Notes under the pieces: generated by a model
Told to the model about the DNA's origin: nothing
Databases searched by the model: none
What the model saw: the letters and a program-made list of their open reading frames with translations, nothing else
Shown: positions 13,240-34,422 of the stretch, in pieces
Layout: each line of letters opens with the position of its first letter
How positions within the stretch are numbered: position 1 is the first letter of the stretch
Position numbers and translations under genes: made by a program
Virus record (IMG/VR): IMGVR_UViG_2917408641_000007
Source of the DNA: a virus
Lineage: Duplodnaviria > Heunggongvirae > Uroviricota > Caudoviricetes
Direction: 5' to 3' (one strand)
DNA length: 34,673 nucleotides

Positions 13240-13850
13240 TGGCTAAACCAGCGCGAAGACGATGTAAAAACGAAGAATGTCGGGAATGGTTTCACCCTGC
13301 ATTCGCTAATCAGTGGTGGTGTTCTCCAGAGTGTGGAACAAAGATAGCACTCGAACGACGAAGCAAAGAACGCGAAAAAGCGGAAAAAGCAGCAGAGAAG
13401 AAACGACGACGAGAGGAGCAGAAACAGAAAGATAAACTTAAGATTCGAAAACTCGCCTTAAAGCCCCGCAGTTACTGGATTAAACAAGCCCAACAAGCCG
13501 TAAACGCCTTCATCAGAGAAAGAGACCGCGACTTACCATGTATCTCATGCGGAACGATCACGTCTGCTCAGTGGGATGCCGGACATTACCGGACAACTGC
13601 TGCGGCACCTCAACTCCGATTTGATGAACGCAATATTCACAAGCAATGCGTGGTGTGCAACCAGCACAAAAGCGGAAATCTCGTTCCGTATCGCGTCGAA
13701 CTGATTAGCCGCATCGGGCAGGAAGCAGTAGACGAAATCGAATCAAACCATAACCGCCATCGCTGGACTATCGAAGAGTGCAAGGCGATCAAGGCAGAGT
13801 ACCAACAGAAACTCAAAGACCTGCGAAATAGCAGAAGTGAGGCCGCATGA
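13239..13850 (+). CDS. ninG: NinG / Rap (recombination-associated Holliday-junction endonuclease family)
   Basis: [41 protein letters not shown]... with conserved Cys clusters and HNH-like C-terminal region; about 203 aa as lambda NinG. Confidence 0.8.
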
Positions 13851-14053: not shown

Positions 14054-14696
14054 TGGCAGCAAATACCGAAATATTTGGGTAGTTGGCGATCTGCACGGAT
14101 GCTACACGAACCTGATGAAAAAACTGGAGACGATAGGATTCGACACCAAAAAAGACCTGCTTATCTCGGTTGGCGATTTGGTCGATCGCGGTACAGAGAA
14201 CGTCGAATGTCTGGAATTAATCACATTCCCCTGGTTCCGAGCTGTACGTGGAAACCATGAGCAAATGATGATTGATGGCTTATCAGAGCGTGGAAACGTC
14301 AATCACTGGCTGTTTAATGGCGGTGGCTGGTTCTTTAATCTCGATTACGACAAAGAAATTCTGGCTAAAGCTCTTGCCCATAAAGCAGATGAACTTCCGT
14401 TAATCATTGAACTGGTGAGCAAAGGTAAAAAATATGTCATCTGCCACGCCGATTATCCTTGTGACGAATACGAGTTTGGAAAGCCAGTTGATCATCAGCA
14501 GGTAATCTGGAACCGCGAACGAATCAGCAACTCACAAGACGGGATCGTAAAAGAAATCAAAGGAGCGGACACGTTCATCTTTGGTCATACGCCAGCAGTG
14601 AAACCACTCAAGTTTGCCAACCAGATGTATATAGATACCGGCGCAGTGTTCTGCGGAAACCTCACATTGATTCAGGTACAGGGAGAAGGCGCATGA
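14031..14696 (+). CDS. ninI: NinI serine/threonine protein phosphatase (calcineurin-like metallophosphatase)
   Basis: From the internal ATG of track ORF 13956..14696: [29 protein letters not shown]...GDLVDRG...GNHE metallophosphatase motifs; 221 aa. Confidence 0.8.
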
Positions 14697-15316
14697 GACT
14701 CGAAAGCGTAGCTAAATTTCATTCGCCAAAAAGCCCGATGATGAGCGACTCACCACGGGCTACGGCTTCTGACTCTCTTTCCGGTACTGATGTGATGGCT
14801 GCTATGGGGATGGCGCAATCACAAGCCGGATTCGGAATGGCTGCATTCTGTGGTAAGCACGAACTCAGCCAGAACGACAAACAAAAGGCTATCAACTATC
14901 TGATGCAATTTGCACACAAGGTATCGGGGAAATACCGTGGCGTGGCAAAGCTTGAAGGAAATACTAAGGCAAAGGTACTGCAAGTGCTCGCAACATTCGC
15001 TTATGCGGATTATTGCCGTAGTGCCGCGACGCCGGGAGCAAGGTGCAGAGATTGCCACGGTACAGGCCGTGCGGTTGATATAGCAAAAACAGAGCAGTGG
15101 GGGAGAGTTGTCGAGAAAGAGTGCGGAAGATGCAAAGGCGTCGGCTATTCAAGGATGCCAGCAAGCGCAGCATATCGCGCTGTGACGATGCTAATCCCAA
15201 ACCTTACCCAACCCACCTGGTCACGCACTGTTAAGCCGCTGTATGACGCTCTGGTGGTGCAATGCCACAAGGAAGAGTCAAACGCAGACAACATTTTGAA
15301 TACGGTCACACGTTAG
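14693..15316 (+). CDS. Q: Late-gene antiterminator Q (lambda type)
   Basis: 207 aa [60 protein letters not shown]... with C-terminal Zn-finger CRDCHGTGR...CGRCKG; matches lambda Q. Confidence 0.85.
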
Positions 15317-28519: not shown

Positions 28520-29147
28520 GCACCTCAGCAAAGCTGTGTACTGCAAAGGTGGCAGTGATAGCGGAGCAAAAGAGCAGGCCCGCGCAACTGAAAAAGGTAT
28601 CGATTTACAGCGTGAAATGTGGCAGACGAACATGCAAAACCTTGCACCGTTCACGCCACTTGCTCAACAGTACGTATCACAGTTGCAGAATCTTTCCTCT
28701 CTTCAGGGGCAGGGTCAGGCGCTTAACCAGTATTACAACTCCCAGCAGTACAAAGACCTTGCAGGGCAGGCGCGTTACCAGAGTCTGGCAGCAGCAGAGG
28801 CAACAGGTGGATTAGGCTCTACAGCAACAGGAAACCAGTTAGCAGCAATCGCACCTACGCTCGGTCAAAACTGGCTGTCAGGTCAGATGAACAACTACAA
28901 CAATCTGGCAAATATCGGCCTTGGTGCTCTTACAGGTCAGGCAAACGCCGGACAGAACTACGCTAACAATGTCAGCCAATTGTATCAACAGCAGGCGGCA
29001 GCATCTGCGGCTAATGCGAATAAACCATCAGGATTTCAGAGTGCCTTGGGTGGAGCGGCGGCAGGTGCAGCTGCAGGTACTGCAATCATGCCTGGTTGGG
29101 GGACAGCAATTGGTGCTGGCGTCGGTCTTCTTGGTTCACTTTTTTAA
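28494..29147 (+). CDS. Ejection protein, P22 gp7-like
   Basis: 217 aa, Gln/Ala/Gly-rich with C-terminal hydrophobic Gly-rich segment; GAGGAG RBS. Confidence 0.65.
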   Translation: MLIFQIANKHLSKAVYCKGGSDSGAKEQARATEKGIDLQREMWQTNMQNLAPFTPLAQQYVSQLQNLSSLQGQGQALNQYYNSQQYKDLAGQARYQSLAAAEATGGLGSTATGNQLAAIAPTLGQNWLSGQMNNYNNLANIGLGALTGQANAGQNYANNVSQLYQQQAAASAANANKPSGFQSALGGAAAGAAAGTAIMPGWGTAIGAGVGLLGSLF

Positions 29148-29159
29148 TGGAGGTGTCTC

Positions 29160-30572
29160 TTGGCTACATGGCAACAGGCTGGTAATTCAGGCGCGCTTCT
29201 TGCCGGGTTAGGCGGCATGAACTCCAACGCTCCAAGAGCAAGTGATGCAGACGCCACGCTTGCATACATTCGACAGAATAATGAGATGGAGCGTTCAGGA
29301 CGTAATAACGTTGGCTTGCAGGCTTTGCAGGGCATTTCATCTGTCATGGATATGTATAAGCAGATGGATCAGCAGAAGCGGCAGCAAGAGTTTCAGCAGG
29401 CTTATGCTGATGCATATACATCTGGTGACCGCGATGCCATGCGAAAACTGGCATCACAGTATCCTGAGCAGTTTGACGCTGTAAGAAACGGCATGAAATT
29501 TGTCGATGAAGACCAGCGTTCCACTGTCGGCACACTGGCAGCAAGTGCCAGACTCGCAGCTTCATCTCCAGAAGCCATGATGTCATGGTTGCAGAACAAC
29601 TCATCTGAGCTTACTCGTGCCGGAGTAGACCCTCTGGATGTGGCTAAAATGTATCAGCAAAATCCACAAGGTTTCACAGAGTTTGTTGATCACCTTGGAA
29701 TGGCTGCACTTGGTCCAGAACAATATTTTCAGGCACAAGACAGAATCGTTGGTCGTGAGATTGACCGCGGAAAACTTGCAGAGACAATCCGCAGCAATCA
29801 GGCTGGCGAGACACTTCAGGAGAGAGGGCAAAACCTTTCCTATCAGTCAGCAATGACTGGGCACAATATCGCAGCACAACGCTTGGCTCTGGATCAGCAA
29901 GAGTTCGGGTTTAAGATGCAGCAAGCGCAGGAAAAGGCTCAGCAGTTGATTAGCGAAGCACCTAAGCTGTCAGTAAACATGGAAAAAGGCATCGAGACGG
30001 CTGTAAACAATGCCACAGCATCATCAAACTCAGCCAATTCTATGAGTGCGCTTGCTCAACAGTTCAGAGCAGAAAAACCAACGACAGGTTTGTTCGGTAA
30101 CGCACAGAACATGTTCGCAAAACTTACCGGAAGCGATACGACATTGCGTGATTTGCGCATCCGCCAAAATGCCCTTGTTAACAGTCAGGTTCTTAAATTC
30201 CTACCCCCCGGCCCCGCAACGGATAAAGACGTTGAGATCGTTCGGCAGGGTGCGCCAACTGACATGGATAACCCTGAGACGGTCGCAAGATGGCTTGATG
30301 CAATGGCAAACCTTGAGCGACGAAACGCGCAGTTTAATGAGTTTAAAGCCGAGTGGATGAGCGCGAATGGCAACCCTGGACAATCGCGTAATGGCGGTCA
30401 GATATTGGGGTTGGATGTTAAAAAAGGTGAATCATTGGGGAGTGCCGTTAAGCGGTATATGTCAATGAATACTGACGCAGCGCCAGCACAAGATTCGACA
30501 CCTTCAGGAGGACCACGGAATCAGGTTGGATCATATACCTCAAAATCAGGCATTCTGATCCTACCCACGTAA
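29160..30572 (+). CDS. Ejection protein, P22 gp20-like, with C-terminus altered by the IS insertion
   Basis: 470 aa; apparent TTG start with GGAGG RBS; last 5 codons (LILPT-stop) are encoded by the IS end; native frame would continue QFTVE-stop across the insertion site. Confidence 0.7.
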   Translation: MATWQQAGNSGALLAGLGGMNSNAPRASDADATLAYIRQNNEMERSGRNNVGLQALQGISSVMDMYKQMDQQKRQQEFQQAYADAYTSGDRDAMRKLASQYPEQFDAVRNGMKFVDEDQRSTVGTLAASARLAASSPEAMMSWLQNNSSELTRAGVDPLDVAKMYQQNPQGFTEFVDHLGMAALGPEQYFQAQDRIVGREIDRGKLAETIRSNQAGETLQERGQNLSYQSAMTGHNIAAQRLALDQQEFGFKMQQAQEKAQQLISEAPKLSVNMEKGIETAVNNATASSNSANSMSALAQQFRAEKPTTGLFGNAQNMFAKLTGSDTTLRDLRIRQNALVNSQVLKFLPPGPATDKDVEIVRQGAPTDMDNPETVARWLDAMANLERRNAQFNEFKAEWMSANGNPGQSRNGGQILGLDVKKGESLGSAVKRYMSMNTDAAPAQDSTPSGGPRNQVGSYTSKSGILILPT

Positions 30573-30585
30573 TGTGGACACGGCC

Positions 30586-31440
30586 CTAAGCGAGATTATG
30601 GTTTTCAAATTGTTCCGGGCTGAGACCGCCACAGGCACTGTGACGACGCCAGCGATTGTAATCACACTCGATATAATTAAACACCGTTGCCCGCATTATT
30701 TCCCGGCTGCTAAAGCGTTCCCCGTGGATACATTCCACCTTCAGCGAATGAAAGAAGCTTTCCACACAGGCATTGTCATAACAGTTGCCTTTCGCACTCA
30801 TACTGCCACGCAGGTTGTGTCGCTTCAGCAGCGCCTGATAATCCCCTGAACAGTATTGACCACCACGGTCCGTATGAACAATGACGCTTTCCGGGCGTCT
30901 TCTCCGCCACAACGCCATTTGCAGTGCATCACAGGCCAGTTGTGCTGTCATTCGCGGTGACATCGACCAGCCAATAACGGCGCGTGACCACAGGTCGATG
31001 ACTACTGCGAGATACAACCAGCCCTCATCGGTACGCAAGTACGTGATGTCACCCGCCCACTTCTGGTTCGGGCCGCTGGCGCTGAAGTCCTGCTCCAGCA
31101 GATTCTCCAATACGGGCAGGCCATGTGCACGGTAGCTGACCGGGCTGAACTTCCGGCCGGCTTTCGCCCGCAGCCCCTGACGACGCAGGCTGGCGGCAAT
31201 GGTTTTAATATTGAACTCCGGCAGTTCGTCAGCAAGGCGGGGAGCACCGTATCGCTGCTTTGCCTCAAAGAATGCCTTATGAACAGCGGTATCGCAGGTG
31301 AGCCGAAACTGTTGGCGCAGGCTCATCTGGTGACGACGCCTGAGCCAGACATACCAGCCGCTGCGGGCAACCCGAAGTACACGACACATCGCTTTGATGC
31401 TGAACTCTGCCCGATGATTTTCGATGAAGACATACTTCAT
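30586..31440 (-). CDS. IS3-family transposase OrfB (DDE catalytic domain)
   Basis: 284 aa ...[39 protein letters not shown]...[10 protein letters not shown]...[10 protein letters not shown]... DDE motif; start overlaps the orfA stop (ATGA), shifted frame. Confidence 0.85.
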
Positions 31441-31736
31441 TTCAGGCGCTTCGCGAAGTATGTCGCGGCCTTTTGGAGGATGGCCAGTTCCTCAGCCTGC
31501 TCCGCCAGTTGTCGTTTAAGGCGGACATTTTCAGCGGCCAGTTCGCTTTCGCGCTCTGACGAACTCATTTGTTGCTGCTGTTTACTGCGCCAGGCATAAA
31601 GCTGAGATTCATACAGGCTGAGTTCACGGGCTGCGGCGGCCACACCGATGCGTTCAGCGAGTTTCAGGGCTTCGTTACGAAATTCAGGCGTATGTTGTTT
31701 ACGGGGCTTCTTGCTGATTGATACTGGTTTTGTCAT
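31437..31736 (-). CDS. IS3-family transposase OrfA (HTH)
   Basis: 99 aa [54 protein letters not shown]... typical IS3 OrfA; AAAAG slippery motif near the 3' end. Confidence 0.85.
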
Positions 31737-31815
31737 GAGTCACCTCTGGTTGAGAGTTTACTCACTTAGTCCTGTGTCCACTATTGGTGGGTAAGATCAT
31801 TCAATTTACGGTGGA

Positions 31816-33657
31816 ATGATGAAAGTAACTGCAAACGGTAAGACATTTACCTTTCCTGATGGTACGAGCACCGAAGATATTGGCACCGCCATTGATGAGT
31901 ATTTTGCTGGTCAGGCTGTTCAGCAACAAACAGTTAATCAGGCCAATAATGTACCAACACGGAAAGAACCATCATTGATGCAACAAGCTGGCGATTGGCT
32001 CACTGGTGGTCAAAGTGCAGGGCAAATTGCAGAACAGGCTGGTCGTGGTCTGGTAAACATACCATTTGACGTATTGCAGGGTGGCGCAAGTCTGATTAAT
32101 GCAATCAGTCAGGGGCTTGGTGGGCCAAAAGTATTGGATGATGTCTATCGTCCAGTCGATCGACCGACAGACCCTTATGCGCAAGCTGGAGAAACAATTG
32201 GCGGGTATTTAGTTCCAGGAGTTGGAACGGCAGGAAGCATGGCTATTGGATCACTGGCAGAGGCCGCAAATCAGAAAGGCGATTTCGCACAAAATGCAGC
32301 CAAAAATGCCGGAGTTAACCTTGCCGCTCAGGGGGTTCTTTCCGCAGCAGCAAAGGGAATAGGGCGTGGAATAACGGCTATAAAAGGTGATATTTCGCCA
32401 GAAGTGGCGAAGAAAATTGCCACATCAGAATCGATGGGCGTGACACCAATGACATCTGATGTTATCCCGCCGAAAAATGCTTTCACTCGCGGCCTTACTC
32501 AGGATGCCGAGGGGGCTTTGCTCGGGACAGGCTCAAAGCGAGCGGAGCAATATGCAACGCGTAGTAAGCTGGTAAGTAATTATTTTGACCGTTTTGGTGA
32601 GTACAACCCTGATGATGTGGTGAAATCTCTGACCACCACGTTAAGGGGGCGGAAGGATGCCGCTGGCGCTGTTATCAATGACGTCACCAATAAAATGGGT
32701 AATGCCGCAGTTGATACCACAAACACTATGAATGCTCTGAATACAGCGATCGCAAGACAGGAACGGCTTGGGACGTCTGCCAATCAAAGCCTGCTTACAT
32801 CCTTGCGTAACCTACGTGAAGAATTAGCAAACCCTGCAACTGATTTGGATGTTACGTTTGATCTCCTGCGTCAGCACAGAACAGCATTTAGATCTAATGT
32901 TCAGGGAGATGCTATGGTCTTCCCCAACCAGGCAAAAGCAGCTACCAATATGGTAGAGAATGCAATGTCAAAAGACCTTCGTAACGCAGTTGCAAAAAAC
33001 CTCGGTGCATCAGACGCAGCAAAATACCTTAAAGCAAATTCTGATTATGCAAACGTTTATAATAAGGTGCTTAATAAAAACATTGCTAACAAACTCAACA
33101 AGGCAAGCAGTGAAGCCAGCCCTGAACTTATAAATACCGTTGTATTAAGCAGAAAACCATCTGACGTGAAACGAATATGGAGCGCACTGGATGATAAAGG
33201 GAAAGATGCTATGCGTGCAGCTTACGTCAGCAAAATAGCGGAAAAGGCCGGTGACTCTCCAGCCAAGTTCATCACTGAAGTTAATAAGCTGAAATCTCAG
33301 TCAGGCGGTGAAATTTACAACACTATTTTTTCTGGAAAGCACATGAAAGAGCTTGATGCTCTTCATGAAGTTCTACAGCAAACAGCAAGGTCAGACACCG
33401 CAAATGTAGTAACTCAGACGGGGCAATCACAAGCCAACAGGATAAGGACGATTGGCGCAACTGCGACTCTTGGTGTATCAATGGGGCTTGAGGCTGGCTT
33501 TGGTGCAATGATGCGTTTGTATGAGTCCAAAGCAGCAAGGAATGCTCTCTTACGTCTGGCAAACACTAAAGCTGGAACGCCAGCCTATGAAAGAGCGTTG
33601 AATACCGCTGCAAATGCCATCAGGCCGCTGCTTGCTACTGAGGCAACACAGCAGTAA
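31816..33657 (+). CDS. Ejection protein, P22 gp16-like
   Basis: 613 aa immediately downstream of the IS; start ATGATG with GGTGGA RBS retained; size and position match P22 gp16. Confidence 0.75.
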
Positions 33658-33681: not shown

Positions 33682-34071
33682 TTAACATTTTCTTTTTACT
33701 TTTCCAACAAAGGCTTTGGTTGAATCCATATTCCCATAACCAGAAATGGTTTTCGACATTAAAACTGTTCCATTAGGATGTATTACCCATGAGTCGATAA
33801 CTCGTTGAGTTTCGCCATTCGCGCCGATTCCGATGATGGAGTTTTTAGACAATGCTTTGTAAGCCATGCCGCCCGCATCCGTCCCAGAATATGTGATACT
33901 GGCATCTTCACCGTTTGTCTTAATGATGAATGTTCCACTAAAACCATCTTCTTCCGGTTGAAAATTATTTCGTTCTGAATAGCTTATTCCGTGCATATCT
34001 CCAACGACCCAGCACTCTGCTGAGACAGAAAACGAGAAGACAAAGAAAGCCATTGCTATAATCAATTTCAT
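33682..34071 (-). CDS. Secreted protein of unknown family (129 aa), paralog of ORF 6541..6945
   Basis: Signal peptide MKLIIAMAFFVFSFSVSA|ECW...; shares ECWxV..HG, SxxY.G, LSxN..G, W.I, SK, STK.FVG.V...C pattern with the cI-coupled ORF; last gene of the mnt operon. Confidence 0.6.
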   Translation of the reverse strand: MKLIIAMAFFVFSFSVSAECWVVGDMHGISYSERNNFQPEEDGFSGTFIIKTNGEDASITYSGTDAGGMAYKALSKNSIIGIGANGETQRVIDSWVIHPNGTVLMSKTISGYGNMDSTKAFVGKVKRKC

Positions 34072-34086
34072 TTTAAGCCCTTATTG

Positions 34087-34422
34087 TTATTGATTCTTTT
34101 TGCACGGAAATGTTTTTCCTACTGCTAGGGCGGTTAGTATAACTGCATTCTCATTTCTTGATTCTGGGTTTTTGTTTAGATATTTCTCAACGATATCGGT
34201 GTATTGATACATGTCAACGCCATCAGGAGGACATAGAGAACCAATTAGTATCAATGAGTCAGTTACTCCGCGCAAATATCCAGTAATGTAAAGCGATGAA
34301 AAATCATCACCATTTTTACCTTGTTGAATGTTGTAAAGAAGGTCATTACCCGTTTGAAGCTCGCGCAGCTCAGCACTGGAAGAAGAGACAACTGCTAACA
34401 GGAACAGTGATAGAAATCTCAT
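34087..34422 (-). CDS. Secreted small protein of unknown function (111 aa)
   Basis: Signal peptide MRFLSLFLLAVVSSSSA, two Cys in the mature part; start overlaps the mnt stop (ATGA). Confidence 0.55.
   Translation of the reverse strand: MRFLSLFLLAVVSSSSAELRELQTGNDLLYNIQQGKNGDDFSSLYITGYLRGVTDSLILIGSLCPPDGVDMYQYTDIVEKYLNKNPESRNENAVILTALAVGKTFPCKKNQ

Follow-up and report, generated by a model that had tools for sequence, protein, structure and literature searches.

The window, by which we mean the whole stretch of 34,673 nucleotides analyzed here (IMG/VR record IMGVR_UViG_2917408641_000007; Caudoviricetes), is identical to the sequence of the Escherichia marmotae HT073016 chromosome (CP025979.1), stopping 49 bp before the end of that record. 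It is a P22-like prophage, and apart from the insertion that is the subject of this analysis its late region is complete, with late genes equal in length to those of relatives. These comprise lysozyme, Rz, an Sf6-type small terminase, the large terminase, portal, scaffold, coat, gp4, gp10, a needle with an Sf6-type knob, gp14, gp7, gp20, and gp16; a Q-like late antiterminator is also encoded (Table 1). The ejection module is of the P22 (Lederbergvirus) type: genes 7, 20, and 16 lie in that order (gp7, PF25688; gp20, PF16928; gp16, PF26808 and PHROG 770), downstream from genes 10, 26, and 14 (families upstream: PF11134, PF16532, and PF11039), and in order, sizes, and families the module matches the 7-20-16 cluster of P22 itself. 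An exact look-up of a 253-aa ORF at 775-1536, made for the left prophage end, returned no match, and neither of the two small genes downstream from gene 16 has a match in PADLOC. IS insertions in P22-like prophages are seen elsewhere (ISEc12, in related prophages).

Table 1. Coordinates of the late antiterminator, the insertion, and the genes that flank it, numbered from the first letter of the window
Feature	Position	Strand	Detail and basis
Q-like late antiterminator (gene 23 homolog)	14693..15316	+	Pfam PF03589 Antiterm, E=2.5e-57
Gene 20 homolog, ejection protein	29160..30572	+	470 aa, last 5 residues (LILPT) IS-encoded; Pfam Inj_translocase, E=3e-71; PHROG 917
Target-site duplication, left TTC	30553..30555		Read directly; relatives have a single TTC here
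Complete ISEc16 (IS3 family), 1244 bp	30556..31799	-	Transposase antisense to phage late operon; nucleotide identity to named copies
IS inverted repeat arms	30556-30594 + 31761-31799		39 nt, imperfect, 30/39 complementary (77%), TG...CA ends; repeat search
IRR, transposase-downstream end, adjoins gene 20	30556..30594		Provides LILPT, the present end of gp20, and its TAA stop (30570-30572); repeat search, translation
orfB, DDE catalytic domain	30586..31440	-	284 aa from its ATG; Pfam rve (E=1.8e-29), rve_2, rve_3; NF033516
orfA, helix-turn-helix	31437..31736	-	99 aa, L-rich heptad-like C-terminus; Pfam HTH_Tnp_1, E=7.9e-10
AAAAG slippery site, putative -1 frameshift for OrfAB	31470..31474 (IS position 326)	-	Single AAAAG in orfA; the slip itself is inferred
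IRL, orfA-upstream end, adjoins gene 16	31761..31799		Repeat search, alignment of both ends
Target-site duplication, right TTC	31800..31802		Read directly
GGTGG, putative Shine-Dalgarno of gene 16, retained 3' of the IS	31810..31814	+	Read directly; the same in every empty-site relative
Gene 16 homolog, ejection protein, intact	31816..33657	+	PHROG 770 "DNA transfer protein," E=1.8e-279; PF26808 Phage_P22_gp16

Between the bulk of gene 20 and gene 16 lies a full-length IS3-family insertion sequence of 1244 bp, read directly from the sequence. Its first letters are TGATCC and its last AGATCA; at greater length, it opens with TGATCCTACCCACG and closes with a CGTGGGTAAGATCA-like sequence (TGGTGGGTAAGATCA). 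The boundaries of the element (30556-31799), its two terminal inverted repeats, and the 3-bp TTC duplication had all been proposed in an initial annotation, and each was recovered independently from the letters, the repeats as an imperfect 39-nt pair. In these respects the element is typical of the IS3 family, in which length falls at ~1.2-1.55 kb, the inverted repeats are imperfect with TG...CA ends (here TGATC...GATCA), and the direct duplication of the target is short, at 3-4 bp (here TTC on both sides). The classification as a complete IS3-family element with both orfA and orfB was likewise borne out, by the inverted repeats, by Pfam, and by NCBIfam NF033516 ("IS3 family transposase"), against which orfB scores 325 bits (cutoff 160). 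Other family characters are the pairing of a helix-turn-helix OrfA with a DDE OrfB of the RNase H fold and the overlap (ATGA) of the two reading frames, which are in phases 0 and -1. On conceptual translation, a -1 shift after the AAG codon would give a 383-aa OrfAB fusion with catalytic residues D230, D290, and E326, and with 35 residues between the second D and the E, i.e., DD(35)E. This copy is already annotated in CP025979.1 as a transposase gene of 383 residues, the same length as the -1 fusion, and the ISEc16 copy in E. coli 536 carries the annotation "programmed frameshift."

By nucleotide identity, the element is ISEc16. The name rests on 99.6-100% identity over positions 1-1244 to copies named by PGAP (threshold at least ~95%), together with the length of 1244 bp. 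When the element was compared with 5,426 complete E. coli genomes, full-length matches were found at up to 99.6% identity, and these carry the PGAP label "IS3-like element ISEc16 family transposase." Copies at 99.6% identity to the prophage IS occur widely in E. coli; ISEc16 copies that match the 1244 bp at 95-100% identity, over the full length and with the same ends, number more than 1000. The best two plasmid matches, on pEM148 and pEM76 of E. marmotae HT073016, are 100% identical. Three further copies that we inspected have the same ends as the prophage copy; a check on whether the termini might not be those of an IS3-family element thus found the ends of catalogued ISEc16 copies. In the genome paper for HT073016, ISEc16 is listed in Table 2 as an IS3-family element of 1244 bp, with 14 chromosomal and 3+2 plasmid copies, for a total of 19 (PMC6650469). 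Elsewhere in E. coli and E. marmotae, ISEc16 has the same 1244 bp, the same termini, the same 383-aa frameshifted transposase, and 99.6-100% nucleotide identity, so that the insertion site alone distinguishes the prophage copy from those catalogued. Several other ISEc16 copies that were examined lack matching flanking triplets, whereas the prophage copy has a perfect TTC duplication. With a junction-spanning query, matches in E. coli run 9-14 bp past the IS end, which could have meant that the element is longer or the target a common one; this was ruled out, as the three copies inspected have unrelated flanks and the extension is thus due to chance.

It should be noted that ISEc16 resembles, but is not, the prototype of the family. 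IS3 of E. coli K-12 has ORFs in phases 0 and -1, an AAAAG motif, TG...CA ends, a 3-bp target duplication, and a DDE transposase, and the two elements are alike in the two-ORF layout and in each of these other characters. IS3 is 1258 bp in length (vs. 1244 bp for ISEc16). In 4287 E. coli records the best match to the 1244 bp is at 80-90% identity, and one of the matches listed is annotated as "IS3-like element IS3 family transposase." Because identity at this level is only ~80-90%, ISEc16 is an element distinct from IS3.

The insertion point can be defined to the base. As the initial annotation had reconstructed, deletion of the IS and one TTC restores a gp20 that ends in SGIQFTVE, with its TGA stop (31817-31819) inside the ATGATG at 31816-31821. 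That annotation also called for comparison with uninterrupted relatives, for which a single query was built from the 600 bp on either side of the IS, minus one TTC. This empty-site query is matched as one unbroken piece in 242 E. coli genomes, at up to 98.9% identity, and it matches phage N7 (Lederbergvirus) across the junction. Both N7 and a prophage of E. coli O111:H2 read ...AAATCAGGCATTCAATTTACGGTGGAATGATGAAA, with one TTC and a gp20 that ends in SGIQFTVE followed by the stop. A contig from Logan (SRR6001585; L006) encodes an identical gene 16 product without the IS, and its flanks are 99.85% identical to the window over 5987 bp upstream and 100% identical over 2876 bp downstream. The same empty site occurs in six further loci, which were reached via an identical Mnt protein. 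Altogether, an empty site with a single TTC was found in ten related loci, which vary in their flanks, gp20 alleles, and hosts and include a free phage. Given these ten independent relatives and the more than 1000 full-length copies of ISEc16, a chance match of the IS is not an issue. As for the occupied site, a junction-spanning query is covered by none of the 5426 complete E. coli genomes, and the left junction, between the IS and gene 20, was not found in an exact scan of species-representative genomes. The chimeric gp20 that ends in LILPT is on record on four contigs, for which one place is shown, present in two samples. On this comparison the insertion is derived and specific to the HT073016 lineage, and it is probably recent, because the IS is identical to sister copies in the strain.

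The element lies 14 bp before the native stop codon of gene 20. The replacement of QFTVE by LILPT, described in the initial annotation, was confirmed by translation: the protein now ends in ...SGILILPT, with its stop codon inside the end of the IS, and its length is unchanged. In its C-terminal half, gp20 here is a mosaic allele unlike that of HK620; among the phages compared, this half matches those of N7, HZ41, Emek, ST-35, and an Aeromonas phage. Past the conserved GESLGSAVKRY region, gp20 tails vary in both length and sequence (e.g., in Emek, the Aeromonas phage, and HK620), which argues for tolerance of a change of five residues. The last 14 native residues, GSYTSKSGIQFTVE, accompany the gene 16 allele that begins MKVTANGK, even where the gp20 C-domain is a different one (L016), and Emek and a second locus (L014) have the C-domain type of the window but differ from it in both the tail and the start of gene 16. 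Against the PDB, the gp20 sequence gave no match. For P22, residues 436-471 of gp20 are unresolved, and in predictions that include the N-terminal region of gp16 they wrap the plinth beside the cytoplasmic membrane (preprint, bioRxiv 10.64898/2026.09.03.749273). On these models, contact between the gp20 tail and gp16 is possible. Because the extreme C-terminus of P22 gp20 is predicted to lie near the gp16 N-terminal region, the five-residue change may not be neutral, and the step from QFTVE to LILPT may carry a cost.

The separation of gene 20 from gene 16 by 1.24 kb of antisense IS, also pointed out in the initial annotation, can be read from the sequence, and the insertion has enlarged the phage genome by 1247 bp. 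In 13 of 13 relatives examined, genes 20 and 16 overlap, stop codon to start codon (as ATGA/TGATG or TAATG); here, this overlap is lost. What is kept is the native 16-19 nt before the gene 16 start, GGTGG included, plus the full ORF. Annotation places the start at the second ATG (31819), for a protein of 612 aa that is identical to that of the IS-free contig L006. Read on the + strand, the IS showed no terminator-like site, nor was there an outward promoter toward gene 16 near IRL; its single promoter-like site in this direction (30575-30602) is at chance level. With no promoter in the IS facing it, gene 16 would therefore depend on transcription through the IS from the late promoter. It is well known that in lambdoid phages the Q-modified polymerase ignores terminators. 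From the genes present, Q-antiterminated read-through of the IS is plausible, with a possible effect on the stoichiometry of the ejection proteins. Were antitermination only partial, Rho-dependent polarity could arise over the 1.2 kb of RNA that is not translated.

A similar arrangement is found in Shigella phage Sf6, which is viable with an IS3-family element, IS911, lying antisense within an antiterminated operon (PMC5630979). Both IS911 in Sf6 and ISEc16 here are intact IS3-family elements of ~1.25 kb in a P22-like genome, antisense and inside an antiterminated operon. The difference is in what was hit: IS911 disrupts a non-essential nin gene of the early-right operon (PMC5630979), whereas ISEc16 clips an essential virion gene and parts two essential late genes that overlap translationally. 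Passage of Sf6 selected for loss of IS911 (PMC5630979), and by analogy a cost of the insertion here is plausible.

We consider it highly probable, taking the reading as a whole, that this is a recent ISEc16 insertion, that gene 16 is still transcribed by read-through, and that any defect is at most one of DNA delivery. In outline, a full-length copy of ISEc16 transposed into the P22-like prophage of E. marmotae HT073016, presumably by the copy-out/paste-in route of the IS3 family, via a circular intermediate with a junction promoter, and a staggered cut of 3 bp in the target gave the TTC duplication. Gene 16, with its own putative Shine-Dalgarno sequence and start codon, is now preceded by ~1.24 kb of antisense IS RNA that is not translated. 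The Q-like antiterminator would allow polymerase to read through the IS and transcribe gene 16, although the yield of gp16 relative to gp20 may fall. In P22, the virion contains ~12 copies of gp7, ~12 of gp16, and ~30 of gp20, and all three are needed for DNA delivery (PMC8402733). Procapsid incorporation of gp20 is mediated by its N-terminal part, not by the C-terminus (PMC8402733), and for this reason assembly is expected to be unaffected, with any defect falling in genome delivery.

A more severe outcome is possible, if doubtful, namely that the insertion killed the infectious phage. Through polarity on gene 16, the altered C-terminus of gp20, or both, particles would fail to deliver DNA, and what remains would be a grounded prophage, retained for the genes that it expresses in the lysogen. 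The requirement for gp7, gp16, and gp20 together (PMC8402733) and the loss of a stop/start overlap present in every relative examined point in this direction; however, the putative Shine-Dalgarno sequence, start codon, and ORF of gene 16 are intact, with the ORF matching an IS-free relative exactly, the prophage encodes a Q-like antiterminator, and nothing resembling a terminator was found along the + strand of the IS. The co-segregation of the gp20 tail with the gene 16 allele also favors this reading, but beyond the closest alleles this tail varies in length and sequence, and it is the N-terminal part of the protein rather than the C-terminus that mediates procapsid incorporation (PMC8402733). 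IS-disrupted P22-like prophages do occur elsewhere (e.g., ISEc12 in E. coli Ecol_545 and C1), and against this stands Sf6, viable with an antisense IS3-family element (PMC5630979).

An intermediate state seems to us unlikely, in which a partial polar block lowers gp16 relative to gp20 and LILPT also weakens the contact between the two proteins, the result being particles that are filled with DNA and poorly infectious. Classical P22 16- particles are of just this kind: full, DNA-filled, and poorly infectious. Were this so, a co-infecting phage could rescue the particles outside the cytoplasm, and the prophage would present a natural, IS-made conditional defect in genome delivery.

Other alternatives to a recent insertion of a working element concern the IS itself and fare worse. 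From its sequence, the ISEc16 copy in the prophage is apparently functional. That it is instead an inactive relic, with transposition lost, is very improbable: no damage is seen in either inverted repeat, in either ORF, or in the frameshift site and DDE triad, and the copy is identical to its sisters in a genome where the element has reached 19 copies. IS3-family elements excise as circles, and it could be imagined that the IS-bearing arrangement is ancestral and that the empty relatives are products of precise excision; we give this practically no credence. The site is empty in ten loci that differ in flanks, gp20 allele, and host (one being a free phage) and is seen occupied only in the HT073016 lineage; the IS matches other copies in the strain at 100% identity, indicating a recent event; and copy-out transposition, as in the IS3 family, would not regenerate an empty donor site. 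Scarcely any weight attaches either to an assembly artefact, in which a repeat-induced misjoin put an IS copy into the prophage, for although 19 IS copies in one strain are a classic cause of misassembly, the IS ends are exact, the phage flanks rejoin seamlessly, the 3-bp duplication is perfect (and would not be created by a misjoin), and the junction is not a one-off assembly error because the chimeric gp20 is on four contigs, its place shown in two samples.

There is nothing new in the element, the mechanism, or the context, and the copy is already annotated in a published genome; the insertion of ISEc16 into this prophage is a well-defined but ordinary event. The matter is mostly one of annotation, with little reach beyond: gene 20 in this prophage should be flagged as altered at its C-terminus by ISEc16, rather than taken for a normal allele. 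What it does offer is a clean case, with base-level resolution, in which an IS that is multiplying in the strain (19 copies) has struck the late operon of a prophage, and near-isogenic empty sites exist for comparison. It could be used as a natural test of whether late transcription under antitermination is tolerant of a 1.2-kb antisense IS, and of whether the gp20-gp16 channel is affected by the extreme C-terminus of gp20.

A mosaic boundary lies within gene 20, about 40 nt upstream of its end, as seen when window positions 30520-30555 plus 31803-31819 are compared with three related prophage loci (L016, L014, and L007). In these comparisons, the last 14 residues of gp20 track the gene 16 allele and not the allele of the gp20 C-terminal domain. 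Linkage to the translation start of gene 16, or a contact between gp20 and gp16, could be the cause of this association. The C-terminal half of the window's gp20 is matched in the phage collection only by N7, HZ41, Emek, ST-35, and an Aeromonas phage, and distantly by Ralstonia phages. HK620 gp20 has a different allele in this half.

The window also differs slightly from L006, the near-isogenic IS-free prophage contig. Gene 7 has a 6-bp deletion at 29065, in the part encoding the Gly/Ala-rich C-terminal portion of the protein (217 aa vs. 219 aa in L006), and there are three substitutions (25294, 27347, and 29811).

The circular record CP025979.1 continues for 49 bp beyond the last position of the window, 34673 (these 49 bp are L010 15515-15563), and thus the prophage spans the record origin. 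The arc, ant, tailspike, and integrase end of the prophage is outside the window. In five related prophages (L006 [13819-13842], L012, L014, L015, and L017), the integrase gene is at the tailspike/conversion-gene end, adjoining host yfdC-like and mlaA-like genes, and not at the early-left end.

Next to gene 16 are two small genes (see table), in the position occupied by sieA in P22. The 111-aa product matches the Pfam family Rap1a (PF18602, E=1.2e-14), and the 129-aa product, a protein of unknown function, belongs to PHROG 2651. Rap1a is a type VI secretion immunity protein. A PADLOC search with the two genes returned no match. The trio of mnt, the Rap1a-like gene, and the 129-aa gene adjoins gene 16 in all of the other prophages examined (8/8), and in the collection, 4357 blocks list a Mnt protein identical to that of the window.

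Features located in the window
Feature	Position	Strand	Location
Two small genes with signal-peptide-like N-termini	33682-34422	-	Between gene 16 and mnt
Promoter-like site, TGGACA-16-TATGGT	30575-30602	+	Inside the right end of the IS, directed inward and antisense to orfB

The promoter-like site is probably a chance occurrence, because shuffled sequences yield as many sites of this kind as the region contains.

ISEc16 is not the only IS in prophages of this kind. An IS21-family element, ISEc12, is found inside the region homologous to window positions 1-25000 in the related P22-like prophages of E. coli Ecol_545 and C1 (H98 and H99), indicating that IS insertions recur in this P22-like prophage type.
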